Source: Planctomycetota bacterium
GTDB taxonomy: Bacteria; Planctomycetota; UBA1135; UBA2386
Assembly (NCBI GenBank): GCA_965228735.1
Contig: OZ245838.1
Coordinates: forward strand, 3,776,001 to 3,840,000
Direction of reading: 5' to 3'
Length of the DNA stretch: 64,000 bases
A program made the translations under genes and the position numbers. Every line of letters begins with the position of its first letter. Within the stretch, counting starts at the first letter, position 1. Below the pieces are notes generated by a model. The model saw only the letters and a list, made by a program, of their open reading frames with translations, was not told the origin of the DNA and searched no databases. This document shows positions 5,182 through 22,199 of this stretch, in pieces.

Positions 5182-6714
5182 ATGCTTATCGTGATCCACC
5201 CCTTCGTCACCAACCCCGACCTCTGGAACCCGTCCACCCGGGCTCGAAGGGACCCGAACGACCGCTTCCGACTCCGCCCCGCCCCTGCACCAACGGGGCC
5301 GCCCACCACGAAGCACGAACGCCGCCCCCCAGTCCGCGACCTCCGCCGCCCCGGCGACCCGCTGCAGGCGTCCCGTGCCGCCTCCACGCTGCTCCAGTTC
5401 ACCGAGCGGCAGATCGCCAAGCTCAACTCCAGGGAAGCGCGCTTGCACGGCAAGCGGCGGCGCACGAACCGCCGCCTCTGGTTCGACGACTCCCACTGGC
5501 TCGCCTGGACCATCTGCGGCGAGCTCGTCGTCGTCGAGGAGCTCGAACCCGGCTCGGGTCGCGGCAGCCCGGAGGTCCGGCGGCTTGAGCTCGAGGAGTA
5601 TCCAGACGTCTTCGCCGCCGACCGCCTCGTCACCGACGTGATCGCGCTCTACCAGGGCGACAGCCTAGATGGCCGGGCTTGGCGCTACATGGCGCACCAC
5701 GACCTCAGGGGCGCGCTGACGGCTGCCCTGGCGAGAGCCGAGGCCGAGGAGGCCAGACTCCATTCAGCAGCAGAACCAACAACCCCGGCCGCGGAGGCGG
5801 CCGAGAAGCCGGCGTCACGAGCGAAGCGGCCAGCCAGGAAGACCCGCCACAAACCACGCGGCAACTTCATCCTCTACCGCCGACCGCAGCCTGACGAAGA
5901 CCTCCCGGACTTCGCCGCAGTGCTGCAGCTGCCGCCCGTGCCCGCGGCGTTCCCGAACACCCGCTCGGCGCAGCGATTCCTCGACAAGATGCCCCGGCTG
6001 GGCCTGGACCCCGAAGGCCTGGTCGTTGCTCGGGTGATGCGTGAGGTGGAGGCGCAGCCGGTATTCCGGTCCGGGTTGCGACTACCCCGTGATCCGGAAG
6101 AACTGCTCGAACTCATCCGCCGAGAACCGCGAATCGTGCTTCCGGAGCTCAAGGCCGAATGGGTGCCGCGCTACGAGCTGCATGACGACGGCCAGTGGAG
6201 GAAGCAGGTCTTCCAGGTGCGGCGCACGGTCCGCACCGGCTGGCACGATGTGATCCTCCGTGAACTCGGGGATCACGTGAACGAAGCGGCGCCGATCTCC
6301 GAGGAGAACCAGGTGCGCCGGGCGCTGGGCGAACCCGAGTTCGTGACCGACGACGGCGCCGCCCTGACGCTGATGCAGAAGGCGGCGCGCCGGCTACCGG
6401 CAACTTGGCTCGAGCGGCTCGAGATGGTTCCTGGCGGCCTTCAACCACCGCTGCGCGTCCTTCAGGCCAAGTCCTACTCGCCGCCGAGCAGCGAGAAGGG
6501 GCACTGGCTACGCGCGCCCTACGAGTTCCGTGATCCGGATGCCGTCAGGCCGCAGCGGCAGTTGGTGGAGCTGCGGATCGACGACATTGCGGGGTTGCTG
6601 GAGATCGGGGGGTTGACGTTGCGGTTTCTGTTGGTTCGGGGAGTGGTGGATGGCGGGGTTCAGTGGGTAACGGCGGCCGGGAAGCCGGGTCAAGGCCGGA
6701 GCCGTAGTTCGTGA
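5182..6714 (+). CDS. Hypothetical protein (510 aa)
   Basis: Long ORF starting 1 bp after the ATPase stop, with GC-rich third positions. No recognisable motif. Confidence 0.6.
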   Translation: MLIVIHPFVTNPDLWNPSTRARRDPNDRFRLRPAPAPTGPPTTKHERRPPVRDLRRPGDPLQASRAASTLLQFTERQIAKLNSREARLHGKRRRTNRRLWFDDSHWLAWTICGELVVVEELEPGSGRGSPEVRRLELEEYPDVFAADRLVTDVIALYQGDSLDGRAWRYMAHHDLRGALTAALARAEAEEARLHSAAEPTTPAAEAAEKPASRAKRPARKTRHKPRGNFILYRRPQPDEDLPDFAAVLQLPPVPAAFPNTRSAQRFLDKMPRLGLDPEGLVVARVMREVEAQPVFRSGLRLPRDPEELLELIRREPRIVLPELKAEWVPRYELHDDGQWRKQVFQVRRTVRTGWHDVILRELGDHVNEAAPISEENQVRRALGEPEFVTDDGAALTLMQKAARRLPATWLERLEMVPGGLQPPLRVLQAKSYSPPSSEKGHWLRAPYEFRDPDAVRPQRQLVELRIDDIAGLLEIGGLTLRFLLVRGVVDGGVQWVTAAGKPGQGRSRSS

Positions 6715-6839
6715 CCCGCGTGCAGAAATGGCAGTAGGCATGCAGGACTCGAAGACCGCGGGGTCGCGCTAGCTAGGTTGTGACAGTCAGTGCGAGACCG
6801 TGTGACCGAGGGCATTGCACACTCTGTTGCACAGCCGAC

Positions 6840-8203
6840 GGGAGTGTGCGATGAACGGTGTATTCGCGTGACGGCTGGTGGGATCCTCTGACCCGTAGGG
6901 AGCCCACCGATGACCCCGAAGAAGAATGACCGCCACCGAATCCCAGACGAGCTGATCGACCAGCTCCTCGCCAACTACGAGAAGCCAGAAGACCTGACAG
7001 GAAAGGACGGCATCCTCAAGGAGCTGACGGCCCGGCTGCTCGGCCGAGCCCTCGAAGGCGAGATGACCGAGCACCTCGGCTACGAGAAGCACGCACCGCG
7101 TGCCGAGGGCACGACCAACGCCCGCAACGGATCGCGCAGCAAGACGATCAAGGTCGAGGACGGCGAGCTCGAGATCGAGGTCCCCCGCGACCGCGACAGC
7201 ACGTTCGAGCCCGAGATCGTCAAGAAGCGCCAGAGACGCTTCGCGGGCTTCGACGAGAAGATCCTGGCGCTCTACGCCCGCGGCATGACCGTCCGCGACA
7301 TCCAGGGCCACCTGGAGGAGCTGTACGGCGTCGAGGTTTCGCCGTCGCTGATCTCGAGCGCCACGTCGGCGGTCCACGAAGACGTCCTGGCCTGGCAGAG
7401 CCGACCGCTCGAGCCGGTCTACCCGATCGTCTTCCTCGATGCGCTCGTCGTGAAGGTGCGCGATGAAAGCGTCGTCCGCAACAAGTCGGTCTACCTGGCG
7501 ATCGGCGTCACGCTCGACGGCCGCCGTGAAGTCCTCGGGATCTGGATCGAGCAGACGGAGGGCGCCAAGTTCTGGCTGAAGGTCATGAACGAGCTGAAGA
7601 CGCGGGGCGTCCAGGACATCCTGATTGCGTGCTGCGATGGCCTGAAGGGCTTCCCGGACGCGATCGAGCACGTGTTCCCGCAGGCCACCGTGCAGACCTG
7701 CATCGTGCACATGATCCGGAACTCGCTGCGCTTCGTCAGCTACAAGGATCGCAAGGCCGTCGCCAAGGACCTCAAGCCGATCTACACGGCGGCCAACCGT
7801 GAAGCCGCCGAGGCAGCGCTGGATGCCTTCGACAAGAAGTGGGGCCGCCGCTACGAGATGATCACCTCGTCCTGGCGAGCGAACTGGGAGCGTGTCGTGC
7901 CGTTCCTCGACTTCCCGCCCGAGGTCCGGCGCGTGATCTATACGACCAACCAGATCGAGGCGCTCAACTCGAGCCTGCGCAAGCTGCTGCAGTACCGCGG
8001 CCACTTCCCGGACGACAAGTCCGTCACCAAGCTGCTCTACCTCGCGCTGCGTCGCTTCGAGAAGAAGTGGACGCGTGCGCTCTGGAATTGGAGCGCCGTC
8101 CTCGGGCAGCTCGCTATCTTCTTTCAAGGCAGGATACCTGCCCTGTAACCGTGACCTCACTCCGCCAGCTGGTCGCCGTTTACACCGTTAGCTGCACACT
8201 CCC
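6840..8203 (+). mobile_element. IS256-family element with 8-bp target duplication
   Basis: IRs GGGAGTGTGC-N4-AACGGTGTA at both ends. Duplication CAGCCGAC at 6832-6839 and 8204-8211. Confidence 0.95.
6910..8148 (+). CDS. IS256 transposase
   Basis: NARNG, VPRDR, LYARGMTVRDI, FLDAL, CDGLKG, QTCIVH and YTTNQIE motifs. Confidence 0.96.
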   Translation: MTPKKNDRHRIPDELIDQLLANYEKPEDLTGKDGILKELTARLLGRALEGEMTEHLGYEKHAPRAEGTTNARNGSRSKTIKVEDGELEIEVPRDRDSTFEPEIVKKRQRRFAGFDEKILALYARGMTVRDIQGHLEELYGVEVSPSLISSATSAVHEDVLAWQSRPLEPVYPIVFLDALVVKVRDESVVRNKSVYLAIGVTLDGRREVLGIWIEQTEGAKFWLKVMNELKTRGVQDILIACCDGLKGFPDAIEHVFPQATVQTCIVHMIRNSLRFVSYKDRKAVAKDLKPIYTAANREAAEAALDAFDKKWGRRYEMITSSWRANWERVVPFLDFPPEVRRVIYTTNQIEALNSSLRKLLQYRGHFPDDKSVTKLLYLALRRFEKKWTRALWNWSAVLGQLAIFFQGRIPAL

Positions 8204-8330
8204 CAGCCGACCGCCCGCGAATCGCGCCGCGGAGATGCAAGAAGCATGAACCGAACAAGTTGAACATGCCAAAGCGACTCCTCGGCGCACGCACTCACGC
8301 CCTTCTTCGCCATGGCTCTGCGAACACAGA

Positions 8331-8948
8331 CTACCTCGCCTTGGCGAGCGCTCGAACTCGCCGCGCCTCCTCGCGAGCTCTTGCGTAGCCCTCAGTGGCT
8401 TCTATCACTTGAACCTCCAACCTCCGTGCTGCTCGCTTAAGGCTATCGTCAGCATCCTCAGCGAAACAAAATCCGGCGTCCTCCCACCAAACCCTGCCCC
8501 AGTGATCCCGCACCAACTCGATGGCTCGCTGCGTGTGCCAACACAGTTCTGCCTCTGCTCGCAGGAACTTCGCGTAGACCTCGACGCCGTCGACTGGAAT
8601 AGCTCGCTCCACCCCCGCTTCGATCACGAAGTCGAACCAGCAAGAAGAGTCGGCCAAACTGCGTGGTTGTTCAACCACGCGGAGTAGTCGCGTCGCCGCA
8701 CCCTCCATATCGTTGAGGACCCTTAGTCTGCGTGCAACTTGCCCCACCGAAAAGAGATCACCCAAGTTCGCTGCATCAACGGAAGCAACCTCGACACGCA
8801 GCCTCCCAAGCTGTCCAACCATACGACCGAATTGCCTTTTCCATTCGCGTGCAACACTGTCAACGGCCTTCTCGTACGCAAACCACCCGGACGCGCCGAC
8901 TACGATTGCTAGCAGCATGGACACTCCGATCTTTCGAGCGCAACTCAC
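8331..8948 (-). CDS. Hypothetical membrane-anchored protein
   Basis: GTG start with an AGGAG RBS. One N-terminal hydrophobic helix (IGVSMLLAIVVGASGWFAY). Lower GC. Confidence 0.6.
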   Translation of the reverse strand: MSCARKIGVSMLLAIVVGASGWFAYEKAVDSVAREWKRQFGRMVGQLGRLRVEVASVDAANLGDLFSVGQVARRLRVLNDMEGAATRLLRVVEQPRSLADSSCWFDFVIEAGVERAIPVDGVEVYAKFLRAEAELCWHTQRAIELVRDHWGRVWWEDAGFCFAEDADDSLKRAARRLEVQVIEATEGYARAREEARRVRALAKAR

Positions 8949-9059
8949 TTATTATCTCCTCGACGCGCCGTCCATAACTGTCACGCAATGCCCCCGCGCC
9001 GCCTTCGCGGCAAAGCAACATTCGTTCTGTAAGAGCGAGCCCATAGTCGGCGAATCATT

Positions 9060-10235
9060 TCACTCAGCGTCCATGGAGAGATAGCGACGGCCAGTCACCC
9101 AGTCCTCGCTGATCTCCATGAGGACCGCGGTGGCGAGCCGGAGAAGAGAGGCGTCGTTGGGGAAGAGCGTCGCAACGCGGGTGCGGCGCAGGAGCTCCTT
9201 GTTGAGGCGCTCGAGCATGTTGGTCGTGCGAAGGCAGCGACGGTGCGTCGCCGGGATCGCGAAGACAGCGAAGCCGTCGGGGACGTTGTCGCGAGCCCAC
9301 CGGACAAAGTCGGGAGCGGTTTCCGCGTGATCCTCCAGAAGCCTATCAAGAAGCCGTTCGGCCTCAGGTCGGTCTGGAGCGTTGAAGACCGCACGAAGTC
9401 CACGAGCGATCGACGGGCGCAACGAGACGGTCGGCACTCGTGGAGCGGCGTTGCGTTGCAGGTGGAACTGGCAGCGTTGCCAAGCGACTCCGGGAAAGCT
9501 CGCCGCCAAAGCTTGGCGGAGGCCAGAGTGGTCGTCACTGACGATGAGTCCGAGCCCGTGCAGGCCACGTTCACGCAGGCTGTCGAGGAAGTCGCGCCAG
9601 TGGACCTCGGCTTCCGAGCGCGACACGCTGACGCCGAGGACCGAGCGATGGCCTGCATCATCGACGCCCGTCGCGATCAGGACGGCGGCGCTCATGACGG
9701 AGCCGGCGTGCCGGACCTTTTCGTAGCGGGCATCGAGGACCAGGTAGCGGCACCGGCCGAGCTCGCGCATCCGCCACTGCTGCAGCTCGTCGTCGAGTGC
9801 CGCGGCGGCCCGGGAGACCTGCTGGGACGACACCTGTACTCCGCAGAGCTCCTCGGTGATCGCGGCGACCTTGCGGGTCGAGACGCCCTGGACGTACATC
9901 TCGGCGACCGCGAGCTTCAGGGCGCGCTCCGAGCGAATCCCGCGTTCGAGTGCCGTCGGATAGAAGCGTTCGCCGTCGACGGCCTCGCGGACCTGCGGGA
10001 CGGCGAACTCGATCGCGCCGACGCGAGTCGCCACGGTCTTCGGCTTGAAGCCGTTGGCGTAGCCCCGTCGTGACTCGGTACGCTCGTTTGGACCGGCGCC
10101 CAGGAACGCGGATCGCTCGATCTTCATGGCCTCGTTCACGAGGACGCGGATCGCGTCCGCGATCCCTCCCAGACCCTGCGTTGCGATGGATTCCAAGACG
10201 GTGTCGAGCGTGCTACTTTCGGATTGGTGGGTCAC
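9060..10235 (-). CDS. IS256 transposase
   Basis: YANG, EMYVQGVSTRKV, LDARYEK, SDDHSGL, QRCQFH and RTTNMLERLNKE motifs. Confidence 0.95.
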   Translation of the reverse strand: MTHQSESSTLDTVLESIATQGLGGIADAIRVLVNEAMKIERSAFLGAGPNERTESRRGYANGFKPKTVATRVGAIEFAVPQVREAVDGERFYPTALERGIRSERALKLAVAEMYVQGVSTRKVAAITEELCGVQVSSQQVSRAAAALDDELQQWRMRELGRCRYLVLDARYEKVRHAGSVMSAAVLIATGVDDAGHRSVLGVSVSRSEAEVHWRDFLDSLRERGLHGLGLIVSDDHSGLRQALAASFPGVAWQRCQFHLQRNAAPRVPTVSLRPSIARGLRAVFNAPDRPEAERLLDRLLEDHAETAPDFVRWARDNVPDGFAVFAIPATHRRCLRTTNMLERLNKELLRRTRVATLFPNDASLLRLATAVLMEISEDWVTGRRYLSMDAE

Positions 10236-10307
10236 TTCGTTCTGCTTTCGTTGTGGTTAACAAAAGCTGAGCGTCGTGACTCGCCGACTTGAAGCATCCG
10301 TCCGCGC

Positions 10308-10384
10308 CGGCGGTGGTCGTCGCGGTCGGCCTGGCCACTGCACCCAGGGTGCAGCGCCCAGACCGACCGCGACGACCACCGCCG
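10308..10384. repeat. Long hairpin in the IS256 transposase leader
   Basis: 27-bp arms (26 matches) enclosing a CTGCACCC/GGGTGCAG inner stem. Confidence 0.8.
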
Positions 10385-10592
10385 ACTGCGTCAAGCTGCC
10401 TCGGGCGGTTTACAGAACGCATGCTGCACTACCGCCTTCGCGCAGCAGCATTCAGACTCCAACTCGAGTTTCTTACCGGCCAACCGGCCCCAGAGAGCCG
10501 CGCTACCTCACGTTCGCTGGCGAGAACCTTGAACTCGGCCCTCGGGCCGCTTCATTCGCGCGATGACGTGTCGCACGCAATCGCTCCTTATA

Positions 10593-11081
10593 CTATTCTA
10601 AGTATTTCCCACGCACTGCCTCCGAACCAAACTCCCCTCGACGCAACTCATAAGTAATCATAGCATGCGAGACGGCAACATTTAGAGAACCCACCCGCCC
10701 GTACTGCTGCAATTGCACCACGCCATCGCATCTTTGCAGAAACTCTCGCGGTAAACCGCTCGCTTCGTTGCCGAATACTAGCGCGGGAAAACCATCCCAA
10801 GAAAAGACTGTCGACAAGGCAGCACCTTCATCAATCTCAACCGCAATAGACCGCCGCCCCTCCCTCGCAGCCCAATCAAAAAATTCGTCGTCCGCCCGAA
10901 AATGCAATATCGGACACATTGTCTCAAGTTTGCGAGAGAACGCTTGCGTACCCTTACGAAAACGCCATGGCAACTCATGCCCAAGCATAATCACCTCTCT
11001 CCCACCCATGGCAACATGGGTCCGAACAATCATTCCTACGTTCTGAGGGCTCTTCAGGTTTCGCAAGACGGAGGCAAACAT
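10593..11081 (-). CDS. Stand-alone SPOUT RNA 2'-O-methyltransferase (SpoU/TrmH/TrmL-like)
   Basis: Motif 1 NLKSPQNVGMIVRT, motif 2 VFGNEASGL, motif 3 QYGRVGSLNVAVS. About 162 aa, catalytic domain only. Alternative TTG start at 11090. Confidence 0.9.
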   Translation of the reverse strand: MFASVLRNLKSPQNVGMIVRTHVAMGGREVIMLGHELPWRFRKGTQAFSRKLETMCPILHFRADDEFFDWAAREGRRSIAVEIDEGAALSTVFSWDGFPALVFGNEASGLPREFLQRCDGVVQLQQYGRVGSLNVAVSHAMITYELRRGEFGSEAVRGKYLE

Positions 11082-11231
11082 CTCTAACAATTATCATTCA
11101 TCAGAACGCCGAGCGAGAGTGCTCTAGATCCAATCGCCAACCAGCTCACTCACAGTTCTACCATCTGCACAGGAGACCGGCCAACAACTCCGCCAAGCAA
11201 TTGACCTGGACTCGACGGTCCGGCGCAAGCG

Positions 11232-14200
11232 CTACCAGAGCTTGTAGAGAGTCTTGAAGTTGCCACTCGAATCGAGCCGCAACAAGTCTCCATCGAGTTC
11301 GAAATGCGTCTCTCCAGCGTACGGCCCATCCGTGTAGCTTGTACGCTGCGAATTGGGATCATTGAATATCTCGTTAGCTCGATCTCGGTATTGCCGAGGG
11401 TCATCAAATCCAAACTCGTCTTTGTGACGGCCGAACTTCTTGCCGAACTGCTTATCGGTTCCGGAGAGACTTCGCGGCGGACAGTCTCCGGCATCACCGA
11501 TTGCTTTTGCCCGTGAATCCGCTCCACCACGCCCACCGGCTCTGGACCGCGCGCGCACCATCCGCACCGTGTCAAGGAGCTTGTCGAACGCCGGACCGCC
11601 AGCGGTAACAATCTCCCCCCAGGCATCGCCCGCCATCCGCGCGTCCGCGTTGGCCCTTGCAGTTGCAAGCGCTTGATGAGGCCCTGGAACCCAGCCAAGC
11701 ACTTCGTGATCCCCGAGGTCGGCAATGAAATTGGCCGCGTCGACCGGCTCTCTCATCATCGAACCTATGTAGGTGTCGTCGAGACCCCATGCAGTGGGCT
11801 CTGGTTCTGGCTGAACATCATAAACGACAACTTGCTCGTAGGTTCCCCAGTTGCCGGTTGAGGAGTGGTAGCGAACCGTAATAGAGAAATTGCCGCCCTG
11901 GACACTACCCTCGACTTGCAAACCAAGCCTATCGGCCAAGGTCAAGGGTGAGTTCACAGCGTAGGCATAGGAGTTTCCGCGCTGCATGGGATCACCCCAG
12001 ACACCAATGCGATCTGAGCTCATGAACCTCCCGTTATATGCAGCGTAGTAACGGTTTCTCCTGTATCCCAATCCCGTTTCCCCGTCGACCCGCATCATCT
12101 TCCATCCGAAGACGTTGCCAATCGCGCCATCCGAGCCTGGACGAGCAACGCCCGCCGCGGAGAAATGCGAGACAGCGCCGTACGGCCCGTACTCCTGGAT
12201 CTCCACGACGCCGCCAGCGTTATCGAGCAATCGCGACGGACAGTGCGCACCACCCTCCGCGACGAAGTACTCCGCAAATCCAGGTCCGGCCCCCGGCTCC
12301 CGGAAACGATAGGCAACCAACTCGTCGAGCTGCTCACCCCAAGCGAACTGTCGCTGCGGAACGACGCGAACGTTCGGGATGTCCGAGATCAGCTCCTCGG
12401 CCTCGTGCCAACCATCCCACGCATAGAAGAAGTTCTGGCCCGGTGTGCCGTTCGGAGCCGGCATGACGAAGCGTGCCACCCGCCGGTTTGACGGATCGTA
12501 CTGGTAGACCGCGACCAGGTGCAGCGTCGCCGATTCGGCACCGCCGAGACTCGAGCTCGAAGCCGTCGGAGAACTGCTGGCGCTGCTCGTGCGCCAGGCA
12601 CTCTGCGACGGGATCGACTCCTTTACGTACTCTCGAAAGAGCGGCTGTCGGCTTCGCCAGAGGACACCTGCCGCACCGCCCGGAACGCCGTCCAACATCC
12701 GATCCCTCGCATCCGCCAGAACTTGTTTGTTCTGAACAACGAACGGACCAGACGCAACCTCGTGTTCTCGAAGTGCAGCCAACGACGGCAATGACGTCGA
12801 CGCTGCCGAGGAAGACGTCGAGCCACCGGACATCGCCGACGAGCTCGTGTTCGTGTCGTCGCTAACGAGGAGGTAAACCTCCGACAGACGATTCAGTCCG
12901 TCATAGACGTAGTATAGGTTGCCGTCGAACGTCGTGTTCCCGCGCTCGTCATACGCAAACGTAACGCCGCCGACCGAGTTGTAGCGGTTGTCTGGGTTGG
13001 CAACACCCGGAGGGTCGCCGTCAACCGAGTACGCGGTCGTGGCAGTCGTTCCCGAAGAACTCAGGTAGTCCTGGACCTGGGAACGGTTGTTGGCCGCGTC
13101 CAGACCGTACGTGAGGCGCCGCACGAACGTACCCGTGCCCGGATTGGCCAGCTCCACACTGTCCGCGCCAAGCCAGGCGTCGACCAGTCGGTGATGCTCG
13201 TCGTATTCGAAACGATCACCGTCGGTGCCATCCTGCTTCTGATAGACCTCGCTGATCAGGTTGCTGGCGGCGTCGTAGTTGAACGCGACGTCCGCGTCGT
13301 GGGCCACCGTGCTGAACGACTGCTCGATCGCACTCATGCGGCCGTAGTCGTCGTAACTGTAGGTCGTGTCGAAGTTGTCGTTCGTGCCGCTGTCCCAGTG
13401 AGTCGTCCGCTGCCGAATGCGTGCACCATGGTGCACGTAGTCAGCGAGCGACCTCACCGTGGTGCCGCCGTCCGAACTCCATTGGAGCCCCGCGAGCCGT
13501 CCGACAGAGTCCGGGGTCGTGTAGAGTTCGAGGTCATCAACACCGCTGCCGAGGTTGTTGCGGTAGGCGACTCCCGTCCGAAACCAGTCGCCACCGCTAT
13601 ACGAACTCTCGACGTCGACCCAGTTGGTCGGTCCCCACGGCGGCGCCTCGTACCGGAACGACTCCTTGTGTGTGCGTCCGAGGGCATCGCGATCGTAGTC
13701 CTGCTCGAGGTACTTACCCGCGACGCCATTCAGACCGAAACGCGAGTAGCTGTGCGTGACCTGCCCTAGCGCGTCACGCTCGAGAATGTCGCGGCCGTAG
13801 TAGGCCGATACATAGTCCGAGTGGCCCGCTGTCACCGAGCGAACGACCAGTCGTCCCATGCCGTCACGATCCAACTGGATGTGCGCGTCGTCGCCCTGAT
13901 GAACGCCGATCACGCGCGACGCGTCGTCGTACTCGAAGAACTGCGAGAACGGCTGCGACGGGCTGATCGCGGTCGGCTCCGTGGACGCCCCGGGGTTCAT
14001 GACCACGGTCACGCGGCCGGCAAAGTCACGAATGGTCCGAGTCACGCGCCCACGCCCATCGGTGCGCACGATCTCTGAACTGTCGGACGCACCCGTCCAA
14101 TCGAGGTAGCGGGTCTCGTTCCAGATCGAGGCTGCGACCGTCGACGGCAAGTAGTGCTCGCGGATGCGGCCCATCGCGTCCGGCAAGTACTTGTGCACCT

Positions 14201-17462: not shown

Positions 17463-18029
17463 CTAAAGGTCTGAAACCCCCTTTTCCCGCATCGCTCGGG
17501 AATACTGCCCGAACTGATCAAGAGCGCGACGCACCCTTTGGAGGGACCCCTCGACGCATCGCTCAGATCTGCCGCGGATCCGCGCGATTTCCGAGGTCTT
17601 GGTAACACCCTGCCGATAAAGGTCCAACGTGTGGCGCTCACCATCAGCGAGTCGGTCTCGCGTGGCAGCCACCCAATCGCGCAGTTCGGCCAGCTCCGAT
17701 GGAGTGGGATACGCATCGGCACGATCCTCAAGCCGATGATCCACGACAGTGCGTAGCTTGAGCGCGCGATGCGCCGACCGGACCTTGTTCTTCAGATACC
17801 TGCGCGACCAACGCATCAGGTCATCCGGCTCCGGCTCCGGCTCAGGGCCGAATCGGTCGAGCGCGGCGAGAACGGCCTCGGCAACTTCGTTCTCGATGTC
17901 CACGGCGGCGCTGCGACAGGCCGCTGGCTGCGTAGACTGCAACCATGCCGGGAGCCGTGTCCAAAACGCGACAGCACGAGGACTCAGGTCGGGGAACTCA
18001 GAGAACGTCGCATCCGGGGCAGGGATCAT
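17463..18029 (-). CDS. Divergent ECF-type sigma-70 factor
   Basis: Region-2-like DIENEVAEA...LMRWSRRYLKNK and region-4 HTH LADGER...SEIARIRGRSERCVEGSLQRVRRAL. Its stop abuts the Rhs start. Confidence 0.7.
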   Translation of the reverse strand: MIPAPDATFSEFPDLSPRAVAFWTRLPAWLQSTQPAACRSAAVDIENEVAEAVLAALDRFGPEPEPEPDDLMRWSRRYLKNKVRSAHRALKLRTVVDHRLEDRADAYPTPSELAELRDWVAATRDRLADGERHTLDLYRQGVTKTSEIARIRGRSERCVEGSLQRVRRALDQFGQYSRAMREKGVSDL

Positions 18030-18981: not shown

Positions 18982-19398
18982 CTATCGCTGCAACCATCGC
19001 CAGGGCCTTTGGACCTCCTCGAACTGGAGATCGTCCGGATCCCACAACAGCAGCCGCATGTCGGGCTCCGGCGCGCCACAGTCGATCGCGAGTCGCCGGG
19101 AGTCGCCCCCCGCGTCCCCGATCGCGACGAATCCTGCCGGCCAGTCGGGATATCCGCGCATCACGTTCGTTTCGTACGCGATGTCGTTGCACGTTCGCCG
19201 CAGTCGCTCCGTCGTCGACTCATCGCGGATCGGGTGGAGCCAGATCTCGGTCTCGCATGTGCGCCCCGACTCCGGAGCCAGCACGACGAGGCCGCCGTTG
19301 CTCGCCATCATCCGCTCGCGGTAGCCGCTCGGCAGCGTGACGCCGAGCTTCCGTTCTGCCAGCGCGATCCAACGCTCTTCGACGGGTGGTTTGGCCAT
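18982..19398 (-). CDS. SMI1/KNR4 (SUKH) family immunity protein
   Basis: IALAERKLGVTLPSGYR..M...NGG and FVAIGDAGGD motifs. Confidence 0.85.
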   Translation of the reverse strand: MAKPPVEERWIALAERKLGVTLPSGYRERMMASNGGLVVLAPESGRTCETEIWLHPIRDESTTERLRRTCNDIAYETNVMRGYPDWPAGFVAIGDAGGDSRRLAIDCGAPEPDMRLLLWDPDDLQFEEVQRPWRWLQR

Positions 19399-19532
19399 GA
19401 CGTCGGCTACGACCACGGTACGCCGGCGGGCCGGAGGCGCTTTCTTCGGCAGCATCCTCCCCGGATCAGCGCCTGACGGTCTTGGCCAAACATCCGGTGT
19501 CATCGAGTTTTGGGCTTGAGCTTGCACTCGCA

Positions 19533-19576
19533 ATTAAAGGACTTGGCGGTTTTCTTTAATAACGAAGCCCGTTATT
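19533..19576. promoter_or_regulatory. AT-rich overlapping inverted repeats upstream of fic
   Basis: ATTAAAG-N14-CTTTAAT (19533-19560) and AATAACG-N5-CGTTATT (19558-19576). Confidence 0.4.
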
Positions 19577-19601
19577 CCGTTCTCGTGAACAAGGGCACGC
19601 C

Positions 19602-20762
19602 ATGCAACGAGGGCCGACCGGGACGTACGACATCCGCCGCTCCGGCCCGGAGTCCGTTCGCGCCTTCGTGCCCGCACCGCTGCCGCCCGTCCCGCCGCTC
19701 GACCTGACCGGCGCGGCACAACGCCTGCTGGAACGCGCCTACCTCGCGATCGGCCGGCTCGACACCGTCGCCTCGCTGCTGCCCGACCCGCACATCCTGC
19801 TCTACACGTACGTGCGCAAGGAAGCGCTGCTGTCGTCGCAGATCGAGGGCACGCAGTCGTCGCTGTCCGAACTCATGCTCTTCGAACTCGACGGCGCGGC
19901 CGGGAGCCCGGTCGACGACGTCATCGAGGTCTCCAACTACGTCGCCGCGCTCGAGCACGGCCTCACCCGACTTCGCGAAGGACTGCCGCTCAGCAACCGG
20001 CTGATCCGCGAGATCCACGCCCGGCTCCTCGCCCGCGGTCGCGGCAGTGAGAAGACGCCCGGCGAGTTTCGGCGAACGCAGAACTGGATCGGCGGCACGC
20101 GCCCGGGCAACGCGCACTTCGTGCCACCGCCGCCGGGGCGGGTCAACGAGTGTATGGGCGAACTCGAACGCTTCCTGCTCCAGGAGGACGATCTGCCGAG
20201 CCTCGTCCGCGCCGCGCTGGCGCACGTGCAGTTCGAGACCATCCACCCGTTCCTCGACGGCAACGGCCGCGTCGGTCGCCTGCTCATCGTGCTGCTGCTC
20301 TGCAGCGAGGGGCAGCTCAGTCAGCCGATGCTGTACTCGAGCCTGTTCCTCAAGCAGAACCGCAACGAGTACTACCGGCTGCTCGACGTCGTTCGTCGAG
20401 ACGGGGACTGGGAAGCGTGGATCGTGTTCTTCGTCGAGGGCATCCAGAAGACTGCCGACAGCGCGTTCGAGACCGCGCGACGGCTGATGGCGCTGTTCGA
20501 CGAGGATCGGCGCAAGGTGCAGTCTGCCGAACGCCGGGTCGGCGCCGCGCTGCAGGTGCACGAGGCGCTCAAGGCGCGTCCCGTCCACCGGCTGGGCGCC
20601 ATCGCCGAGGCCACGGGCCAGACGTTCCCGACGGTCGCGGCCGGGATGAAGCTGCTGATACAACTCGGGATCGCGCGCGAAGCGACGGGCAGGCAACGTA
20701 ACCGCGTCTTCGTCTACGATCGCTACCTCGACGAGCTCAACGAGGGAACCGAGAACATCTGA
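19602..20762 (+). CDS. Fic family protein (class II, with C-terminal HTH)
   Basis: Canonical HPFLDGNGRVGR motif and N-terminal inhibitory SSQIEG motif. Confidence 0.93.
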   Translation: MQRGPTGTYDIRRSGPESVRAFVPAPLPPVPPLDLTGAAQRLLERAYLAIGRLDTVASLLPDPHILLYTYVRKEALLSSQIEGTQSSLSELMLFELDGAAGSPVDDVIEVSNYVAALEHGLTRLREGLPLSNRLIREIHARLLARGRGSEKTPGEFRRTQNWIGGTRPGNAHFVPPPPGRVNECMGELERFLLQEDDLPSLVRAALAHVQFETIHPFLDGNGRVGRLLIVLLLCSEGQLSQPMLYSSLFLKQNRNEYYRLLDVVRRDGDWEAWIVFFVEGIQKTADSAFETARRLMALFDEDRRKVQSAERRVGAALQVHEALKARPVHRLGAIAEATGQTFPTVAAGMKLLIQLGIAREATGRQRNRVFVYDRYLDELNEGTENI

Positions 20763-20899
20763 GTGCGGAGCAGGTCAGCGCCCGGTCGCGTCGCGCCAGC
20801 CGGCACCACCCACCACCTCGCTCGCCGAAAGCCGCGATCGGAATCGCCAGTAGACGACCAGCGCAACGAGCGCCGCACGGCAGCGCTTCCGCAGCGACA

Positions 20900-21460
20900 T
20901 CAAACGCCACGATGAACGGCCACCGCTGCTGACACTCCTGCCTCTTCGACGGCCTGCGCGATGCGCTGTTCGACCGCCGTCGCGCCATCGGCGACGTTCA
21001 TGAGCACGTGGAACGGGATCGCGCTCCGGTTGAAGCGACCGTTGTCCTCGATCGGCTTCGACCAGGACTCGGCAACTTCTTTCAGCGTCCTCATCAACGC
21101 GCTCATTGCTTCGAGTCCTTCGTCTGCCAGCACGTCGTCAGCGCGCTCGACGACGACGACGTAGGCCTCTGCCGGCAACCACTCGTCGAGGCACTCGAGG
21201 CAGTCCTGCAACGCCCACCAGTTCTCGCCGAAGCCATCGAAGAACTGGAACGAAGCCGCAAACTCGTCCATCAGCGCCTGGGTCGTCCGCATCTTGTTCC
21301 CGCGCAAACGCCGAACACAGACGTCCAGCCCGGGCCTGGAGTAGAAGAACGACGGGATCCACCGACGCCGCGCGGCCTCCGCGGGGCCGATGTGGATCCA
21401 CGGAGCCTCGACTCGGAACAGGAAGTCGAGAGCCGTTCGTTTCGCTGGATGCGAGTCCAT
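20900..21460 (-). CDS. Barstar-family protein
   Basis: LRGNKMRT..ALMDEFAASFQF..GFGENWWALQDCL pattern (barstar FG-x-N-W-x-AL-x-DCL). Confidence 0.8.
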   Translation of the reverse strand: MDSHPAKRTALDFLFRVEAPWIHIGPAEAARRRWIPSFFYSRPGLDVCVRRLRGNKMRTTQALMDEFAASFQFFDGFGENWWALQDCLECLDEWLPAEAYVVVVERADDVLADEGLEAMSALMRTLKEVAESWSKPIEDNGRFNRSAIPFHVLMNVADGATAVEQRIAQAVEEAGVSAAVAVHRGV

Positions 21461-21481
21461 CGAACCCACTGGCTTGACCGA

Positions 21482-22168
21482 CTACGAACCCGCCGCCATC
21501 ACCGTCGGGTGCAGCTGCGACAGATCCACGACAGGCCGCACGGCCTTGCTCAACCGCTTGAGATACTCCGCCCGCGAGATCTCCCGCGCGCCCAGCCGCC
21601 CGAGATGCTCGGTGACGAACTGCACATCGATGAGCTCGATCCCCGCCTGCGTCAGCGATCGCACGAGCGCGACCAGCGCGACCTTGGACATGTCCGTGCG
21701 GCGGTGGAACTTCGACTCCGCGGCGAACAGACCGCCGACCTGCACGCCGTAGATGCCGCCGATGAGTTCTTCACCATCCCACACCTCGAGGCTGTGGGCG
21801 TGGCCGGCGCGGTGCAGGCGCAGGTAGGCCTTCACCATCTCCGGGATGATCCACGTGCCCTCCGATCGGCCGCGGCCGCAGGCTCTCATCACGCGTTCGA
21901 AGCTGGTGTTCCAGCGCAGTTCGAAGCGGCCCTGGTTGAGCGTCTTCTGCAGGCTGCGGCTCACGTGCAGATCGCCTGACTGCAGGATCGCGCGCGGGTC
22001 GGGGCTCCACCACATCGGGGGGTAGCCGAGGTCGTACCACGGGAAGATGCCGCGGCGGTAGGCGGCCAGCAGGCGCTTGGTCGACAGGTCGCCGCCGATC
22101 GCGACGAGGCCCTGGTCGTCGAAGTCGCGCGGGTCCGGGAACCGCGCCGGGGACGACGCGGTCAGCAT
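21482..22168 (-). CDS. aat: Leucyl/phenylalanyl-tRNA--protein transferase
   Basis: GLVAIGGDL, AYRRGIFPW, WWSPDPR, GHAHSLEVW, FAAESKF and SKVAL motifs. Confidence 0.96.
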   Translation of the reverse strand: MLTASSPARFPDPRDFDDQGLVAIGGDLSTKRLLAAYRRGIFPWYDLGYPPMWWSPDPRAILQSGDLHVSRSLQKTLNQGRFELRWNTSFERVMRACGRGRSEGTWIIPEMVKAYLRLHRAGHAHSLEVWDGEELIGGIYGVQVGGLFAAESKFHRRTDMSKVALVALVRSLTQAGIELIDVQFVTEHLGRLGAREISRAEYLKRLSKAVRPVVDLSQLHPTVMAAGS

Positions 22169-22199
22169 GATCGGGGACTTCGGGGCGCCGCCGCGCACG

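Follow-up and report, generated by a model that had tools for sequence, protein, structure and literature searches.

A SPOUT methyltransferase gene in the immunity slot of a colicin D-like Rhs toxin: probably a mobile passenger rather than an antidote

Introduction

Rhs polymorphic toxins are built from YD repeats, an Rhs core and a variable tip, and usually carry their cognate immunity gene directly downstream. The Rhs protein reported here, encoded in a 64,000-nucleotide stretch of planctomycete DNA (the window), has the same architecture. Unlike in a typical Rhs toxin, its immunity slot is taken by a 150-nt spacer and a SPOUT methyltransferase gene, and the partner gene of its tip family was not found. 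The closest described toxins are colicin D (PDB 1v74, 5znm; PF11429) and the CdiA-CT of E. coli O32:H37 (8ey4), with which the tip shares the predicted fold, the K/K..H..E pattern of the pre-helix and the S/T pattern of the terminal strand. It differs from both by an identity of 20-23%, the lack of a PF11429 match, a KK-x3-H spacing and an unnamed partner family of its own. The methyltransferase has the fold of TrmH, TrmL, TrmJ and RlmB (PF00588; TM 0.79 to TrmH 1v2x), but lacks an N-terminal binding domain and belongs to a patchy, cassette-borne clade.

The initial annotation of this locus had proposed that the methyltransferase protects the producer by 2'-O-methylating the nucleotide that the toxin cuts. 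A precedent for the chemistry is Pnkp-Hen1 repair, in which repaired tRNA-Arg becomes resistant to colicin D through 2'-O-methylation (PMC4411300). There, the methyl group sits on the attacking ribose, as would be required here. Unlike the proposed enzyme, Hen1 is no toxin's cognate partner and acts on broken ends in the course of repair. By fold class Hen1 is not a SPOUT enzyme. Closer in fold are Tsr, NshR and AviRb, which were among our SPOUT search matches and give producers self-resistance through RNA methylation. These two-domain proteins block antibiotics and sit in antibiotic clusters.

Outside subscription papers and bioRxiv supplements we found no published report of a polymorphic toxin whose cognate immunity works by modifying the RNA beforehand, and nothing relevant on SPOUT genes as integron cassettes or on Rhs together with TrmH. 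The covered portion of a preprint on BECR ribonucleases (bioRxiv 10.64898/2026.08.28.747851) contains neither 'methyl' nor 'SPOUT', and that of PMC3482391 neither 'SPOUT' nor 'methyltransferase'. If the methylase protects, a polymorphic toxin would here have its cognate immunity from RNA that is modified in advance, much as in restriction-modification but acting on RNA, and a methyltransferase clade carried on cassettes would gain a function. If it is a passenger, less is gained: a colicin D-like toxin family with 85 representatives, its likely immunity family and a mobile SPOUT clade, all three unnamed.

The Rhs toxin and its tip

Table 1. Features around the 3' end of the Rhs gene (window positions).
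Feature	Position	Strand	Remarks
205-aa ORF, no known family	8331..8948	(-)	single copy; next co-oriented gene if the IS is discounted
IS256-family element	9009..10433	(-)	transposase 10235-9060, terminal inverted repeats, multicopy
Stand-alone SPOUT (SpoU family) methyltransferase, 162 aa	10593..11081	(-)	PF00588 81.1 bits, motifs, fold
150-nt spacer in immunity slot	11082..11231	(-)	ORF, remnant and attC scans
79-aa tip, predicted colicin D / CdiA-type BECR RNase	11232..11471	(-)	predicted fold, family residues kept
Rhs/YD-repeat protein, 2076 aa	11232..17462	(-)	PF05593, TIGR03696 45.5 bits, TIGR01643; Rhs core, C-terminal toxin region
188-aa likely regulator abutting Rhs start	17463..18029	(-)	weak HTH; sigma-factor-like by eye
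SMI1/KNR4 (SUKH) gene, orphan immunity type	18982..19533	(-)	profile match; 1.5 kb upstream of Rhs
Barstar-family gene, orphan immunity type	20900..21469	(-)	3.4 kb upstream of Rhs

The Rhs frame was unbroken across 2076 aa. YD repeats and Rhs core scored above cut-off (PF05593, TIGR01643, TIGR03696) ahead of the variable tip, and the C-terminus reads ...KQFGKKFGRHKDEFGFDDPRQYRDRANEIF...LLRLDSSGNFKTLYKLW up to the stop codon. From this stop to the ATG of the SPOUT gene (at 11081, with an alternative TTG at 11090) the distance is 150 nt. Co-oriented stop-to-stop frames in this gap are just 21, 35 and 66 aa long, the longest overlapping the tip, which bears out the initial remark that the gap is too short for a normal immunity ORF. 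The slot thus holds no immunity ORF, and no remnant of the usual partner was detected in the post-tip frames of the spacer (best score -3.3 bits). The reduced GC content noted initially was also found: 0.51 in the tip, 0.55 in the gap and 0.52 in the SPOUT gene vs 0.69 in the genome. We compared the gene order in four sequencing runs. In two of them (X5 and X8, from different studies) positions 10405-13000 lay on a single contig with 0 differences, while the remaining two span this region only in pieces. The tip-gap-SPOUT order is therefore real and no assembly error; reading frames, profile match and the two runs agree on an intact, co-oriented SPOUT gene behind the tip, as first annotated.

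The tip resembles colicin D in its predicted fold. The model (pLDDT 95.6) contains helices at residues 6-20 and 25-37 and four strands, which is the pre-helix, helix and four-strand topology of colicin-like BECR RNases. A structure search gave a TM of 0.75 to colicin D (E 1.1e-3; 1v74). A wider fold search gave Z 10.1 to the CdiA-CT of O32:H37 (8ey4) and 9.2 to colicin D (5znm) over 73-74 of the 79 residues, the only two chains reaching Z 8 among 48,161. The ESM Atlas likewise gave a colicin D cluster (0.87, a lead only). A search of the tip sequence against the PDB returned chance matches only, none of 45 aligned tip members matched PF11429 (Colicin_D) at E 0.1, and the tip belongs to no Pfam family. 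The likeness to colicin D that had been read from the letters thus holds for the fold; Pfam did not back it, and the spacing is KK-x3-H instead of the KK-x2-H given at first.

A full HMMER scan yielded the longer tip relatives, which a word-index protein search had not returned, and provided 85 representatives, all near protein C-termini. Across the 85 aligned rows K12 and H16 are each conserved in 95% and S at position 74 in 98%. The window tip has T at this position and retains the family residues K12, H16, Y28, R65, S/T74 and Y76. At several sites its residue is not that of most family members (R for E15, K73, T74, K77), with the changes at 73 and 74 being conservative. On the residue mapping that we infer, K12, H16 and S/T74 fit the colicin D pattern tabulated in PMC3482391, as well as the colicin-like group of the BECR preprint (bioRxiv 10.64898/2026.08.28.747851), each as far as its text was covered. 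Judged from the model, the tip would cleave tRNA through the 2'-OH. Though unnamed in Pfam, its family may already have a name in the family tables of the preprint. The tip had no match in the plasmids and viral contigs searched and was not found in a 400-genome sample of the phylum.

The SPOUT enzyme

The three SPOUT motifs (N14-x-G16-x3-R20, G104-N-E106-x2-G109 and S132-L-N134) are intact, and R20, G104, G109 and N134 are invariant across 110 aligned rows of the clade. R20 and S132 align in register with R41 and S150 of TrmH within the 1v2x match range (PMC1829167). The protein therefore combines the fold, motifs 1-3 and the catalytic Arg and Ser of 2'-O-ribose methyltransferases and is, judged from these features, likely an intact stand-alone RNA 2'-O-methyltransferase of an unnamed clade. 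The clade is further marked by a conserved basic/aromatic stretch, W39-E53. The fold matched TrmH, TARBP1, rRNA enzymes and TrmL about equally (TM 0.73-0.80), and all 11 matching NCBIfam models, among them no equivalog for TrmH, TrmL, TrmJ or RlmB above threshold, scored far below cut-off (best 45.9 vs 160 bits), such that no substrate can be named.

The initial annotation had raised the question of separate housekeeping genes. A PF00588 search of the genome (G000) revealed one further gene, a two-domain enzyme, making two in all, and no separate TrmL-, TrmJ- or TrmH-like housekeeping gene. A relative, G167, has just one PF00588 gene, of the two-domain type, and the clade occurs in 3 of 91 genomes of the taxonomic family; the window SPOUT is thus accessory. 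A sigma-70-like site inside the gene was a single match at chance level. Likewise, a 10-nt repeat flanking the gene and a likeness between its spacer and that of the congener described below were attributed to chance by shuffles (p 0.19-0.50).

The usual partner of the tip

Neighbouring genes were surveyed at 17 metagenome loci with 0.2-3 kb of flank per locus, covering the neighbourhoods of a minority of the 85 representatives. At 14 of the 17 a protein family of about 170-205 aa begins at or just past the tip stop (e.g. L058:987-1574, L055:485-1033, L062:1282-1875 and L067:1346-1960), and at none does a SPOUT gene follow the tip. From its position this family is likely the binding antidote of the tip family. 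Immunity by RNA modification therefore fails as a general statement on this tip family. Nine of the 14 loci were used to build a profile and five are near-copies of those, which corresponds to about eight distinct lineages. The profile is weak, with true members down to 2-7 bits when left out, and in leave-one-out runs eight of the nine members beat all 200 shuffles while one did not. The other three loci hold apparent fragments (L068 and L070, the latter cut by an IS) or, where the contig ends, a short frame without a score (L071). At L069 a frameshifted tip precedes an intact partner. Together with the fragments this shows that loss of either gene occurs in the tip family.

The partner family had no convincing Pfam entry; in the ESM Atlas its nearest neighbours were Imm64/Imm52 at 0.82, which is below recognition and a lead only. 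It was not found in the window genome (best E 14 and 19 over 71,675 frames), nor in the congeners G690 and G154, searched without a positive control and with G690 being 88% complete, so that a distant gene may be missed. The profile also did not match the 205-aa ORF beyond the IS256 element. In G207, a colicin D-like tip that is more distantly related is followed by an overlapping downstream gene as well.

Spread and mobility of the SPOUT clade

Database searches provided 115 homologues at 43-61% identity and one distant match, from many phyla and mostly in clusters of one to few sequences. We read 21 loci from 20 genomes, which again span many phyla and cover the neighbourhoods of a minority of the 115 homologues. 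A tip or Rhs core was present at just one of the 21 loci, and 19 of the 20 other carrier genomes gave no match to the tip profile, which recognises the window genome and G690, though many of these genomes are incomplete. The clade as such is thus not tied to the toxin, in disagreement with the initial expectation. The 32 neighbours that we chose from 20 of the loci form an unrelated miscellany, with RelE or DMP19 at some. The genome G126 carries three copies (C1:4606181, 6559836, 7411267), none near an Rhs gene.

Integron attachment sites were sought with an attC model derived from 10 further sites in a single array, leaving out the SPOUT flanks of L018. At this locus attC matched on both flanks of the SPOUT gene (63.6 and 74.7 bits), and at L019 on the upstream flank (33 bits), showing that the gene is an integron cassette there. 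The clade is thus a patchy mobile gene that takes the form of an integron cassette at two or more loci. The array at L018:2301-14441 holds 20 attC matches and includes toxin-antitoxin cassettes besides the SPOUT gene. With this one-array model, positions 6000-12000 of the window gave no attC match (best E 0.76), and no integron integrase was found here above cut-off. An attC-like end after the window SPOUT turned out to be the terminal repeat of the IS256 element. No SPOUT match was found in the plasmids searched, while viral contigs contained two partial or distant loci. A partial match of 39% (L100:4001-4222) lies on a 156-kb viral contig.

A second tip-SPOUT pair in the same genus

Among 339 genomes of the order, the sole other one bearing the tip was G690, from the same genus. 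There, an Rhs protein (L003, equal to G690:C13) ends in a homologous tip (48% identity) that also retains the K, H and S/T residues. A SPOUT gene lies next to it tail to tail, with 62 nt from the Rhs end to the SPOUT stop, leaving no space for a partner gene. Both tip-bearing genomes hence have an adjacent SPOUT gene and no partner that we could find. Since the G690 SPOUT faces the toxin it is not on the toxin transcript. It is the closest known to the window SPOUT (61%), and the two are sisters, with support of 100/91 in a 77-row tree and 87/85 in a 21-row tree (not starred). The tip tree did not resolve and did not recover the two tips as sisters. The Rhs C-terminal regions are homologous beyond the tip (31% over 225 columns), whereas the bodies share 40% identity, which resembles a tip cassette; the values to compare are 71% for a paralogue in the window genome and 73% and 67% for two housekeeping-type genes.

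As the two genomes are congeners they count as one linkage event, not two, and a SPOUT identity of 61%, close to the 73% and 67% of two housekeeping-type genes, fits one inherited event. Tip region and SPOUT gene have probably stayed side by side from the divergence of the two species onward, despite an inversion. A third congener, G154, has a SPOUT gene from another branch and no tip that we found. One-clade tests rejected a group uniting the G154-type copy and the window SPOUT (p-AU 0.002 and 0.02), so that more than one acquisition of the clade by the genus is likely. Hen1_L had no match in the three genus genomes in a search without a matching control. The arrangement, the toxin fold and the enzyme are real; together they are a two-species oddity and not a conserved toxin-modifier system, as no linkage appeared across independent lineages (none at the 17 tip loci, and one at the 21 SPOUT loci, in the congener).

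Origin of the arrangement

We favour, with a probability of roughly 0.6, that the site of the lost immunity gene received a mobile methyltransferase gene in a single insertion, and that this gene is a passenger and not an antidote. The tip would be a colicin D-like tRNA nuclease deprived of its partner gene of about 190 aa, which likely encodes a binding antidote. In the ancestor of the genus an accessory RNA 2'-O-methyltransferase would have settled behind it, in a patch collecting IS elements and orphan immunity genes (SUKH, Barstar). The immunity gene would have been lost, and the SPOUT gene later inverted relative to the tip. The producer may tolerate the tip by other means. The Rhs N-terminus is, by eye, hydrophobic and signal-peptide-like in both the window and the G690 protein, and export with the tip shut inside the YD shell would prevent its folding in the cytoplasm; expression may equally be low, or an immunity protein that is unrecognised or of the orphan type may act. 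The passenger reading draws on the partner family as the rule (14/17), the scattered and cassette-borne clade, the SPOUT without tip in G154, the orientation in G690 and the IS-flanked patch. Counting against it, both tip-bearing genomes keep the SPOUT and lack the partner, while two Rhs paralogues keep their downstream gene. The linkage also appears to have outlasted an inversion on bodies that are 40% alike, with tips that keep K, H and S/T. Finally, neither an attC nor an integrase match points to a route of arrival here, and the Barstar gene was not matched in G690.

The main rival reading is recruitment of the SPOUT, within the genus, to place a 2'-O-methyl group on the nucleotide whose 2'-OH is required by the tip, rendering a binding immunity gene dispensable. 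SPOUT adjacency without a found partner in two of two tip-bearing genomes of 339 keeps this lineage-specific version of the initial proposal alive, even though it does not hold as a general rule (0/17 and 1/21 loci). The sister enzymes both look intact, the homologous C-terminal regions sit on diverged bodies, and Hen1 provides a precedent for the chemistry (PMC4411300). We nevertheless consider it unlikely, because the two cases are one event, a protein partner is the family rule, 19 of 20 genomes have the SPOUT without the tip, orientation is not conserved and the fold assigns no target base (TrmH, TARBP1, rRNA enzymes and TrmL being alike). Moreover, 2'-O-methylation can also promote cleavage, being required for it with SAMD9 (PMC10246899, part covered), and a distant immunity gene may have escaped a weak profile and an 88% complete G690. 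A broader version, in which a captured cassette-type SPOUT replaced the protein antidote of the Rhs tRNase by methylating the cut-site 2'-OH while the wider clade acts as a mobile anti-ribotoxin shield, seems to us similarly doubtful. That the whole clade is a general shield against foreign RNases, spread by cassettes like orphan immunity genes, with the tip adjacency following from this, would agree with its patchy spread, the cassette form, the W39-E53 stretch and the RelE and DMP19 genes at some loci. Toxin-antitoxin and immunity-type neighbours are ordinary in cassette arrays, however, most of the 32 checked neighbours are unrelated to conflict and antibiotic or stress roles fit equally, which makes this shield quite improbable. 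An inactive or silent tip, in need of no immunity, could be read from the departures at positions 15, 73, 74 and 77 and from the IS-hit patch. The intact 2076-aa frame, the kept K12, H16, Y28, R65 and Y76, the conservative nature of the changes at 73 and 74 and the pLDDT of 95.6 render it very unlikely. Neutralisation of the tip through binding by the SPOUT protein, suggested by its slot and its immunity-protein-like size, is hardly credible given that the catalytic motifs are conserved in 110 aligned members, nearly all without the tip.

Surroundings of the locus and Rhs paralogues

The IS256-family element is bordered by an 8-bp target duplication, GCCTTCGC, at 9001-9008 and 10434-10441. A second multicopy element, at about ten times the local depth at positions 8000-8204, ends at 8204, and both elements bracket the 205-aa ORF. 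Upstream of the Rhs gene, positions 18982-21469 hold SUKH, Fic and Barstar genes beside a leucyl/phenylalanyl-tRNA transferase gene (21482-22198).

The genome has four Rhs paralogues with different tips. Among the three others (L052, L053, L054), one has no toxin recognisable by eye, one has an EC869-like nuclease tip (PF21111) with an overlapping gene of 147 aa and one an HNH-like tip with an overlapping gene of 204 aa; the two nuclease-tipped paralogues thus retain an overlapping downstream gene. A homologue (49%) of the 188-aa regulator precedes each of these three Rhs genes (G000:C1:4738479, 4776865, 5213754), such that regulator, as it likely is, and Rhs gene form a module repeated at all four Rhs genes of the genome.
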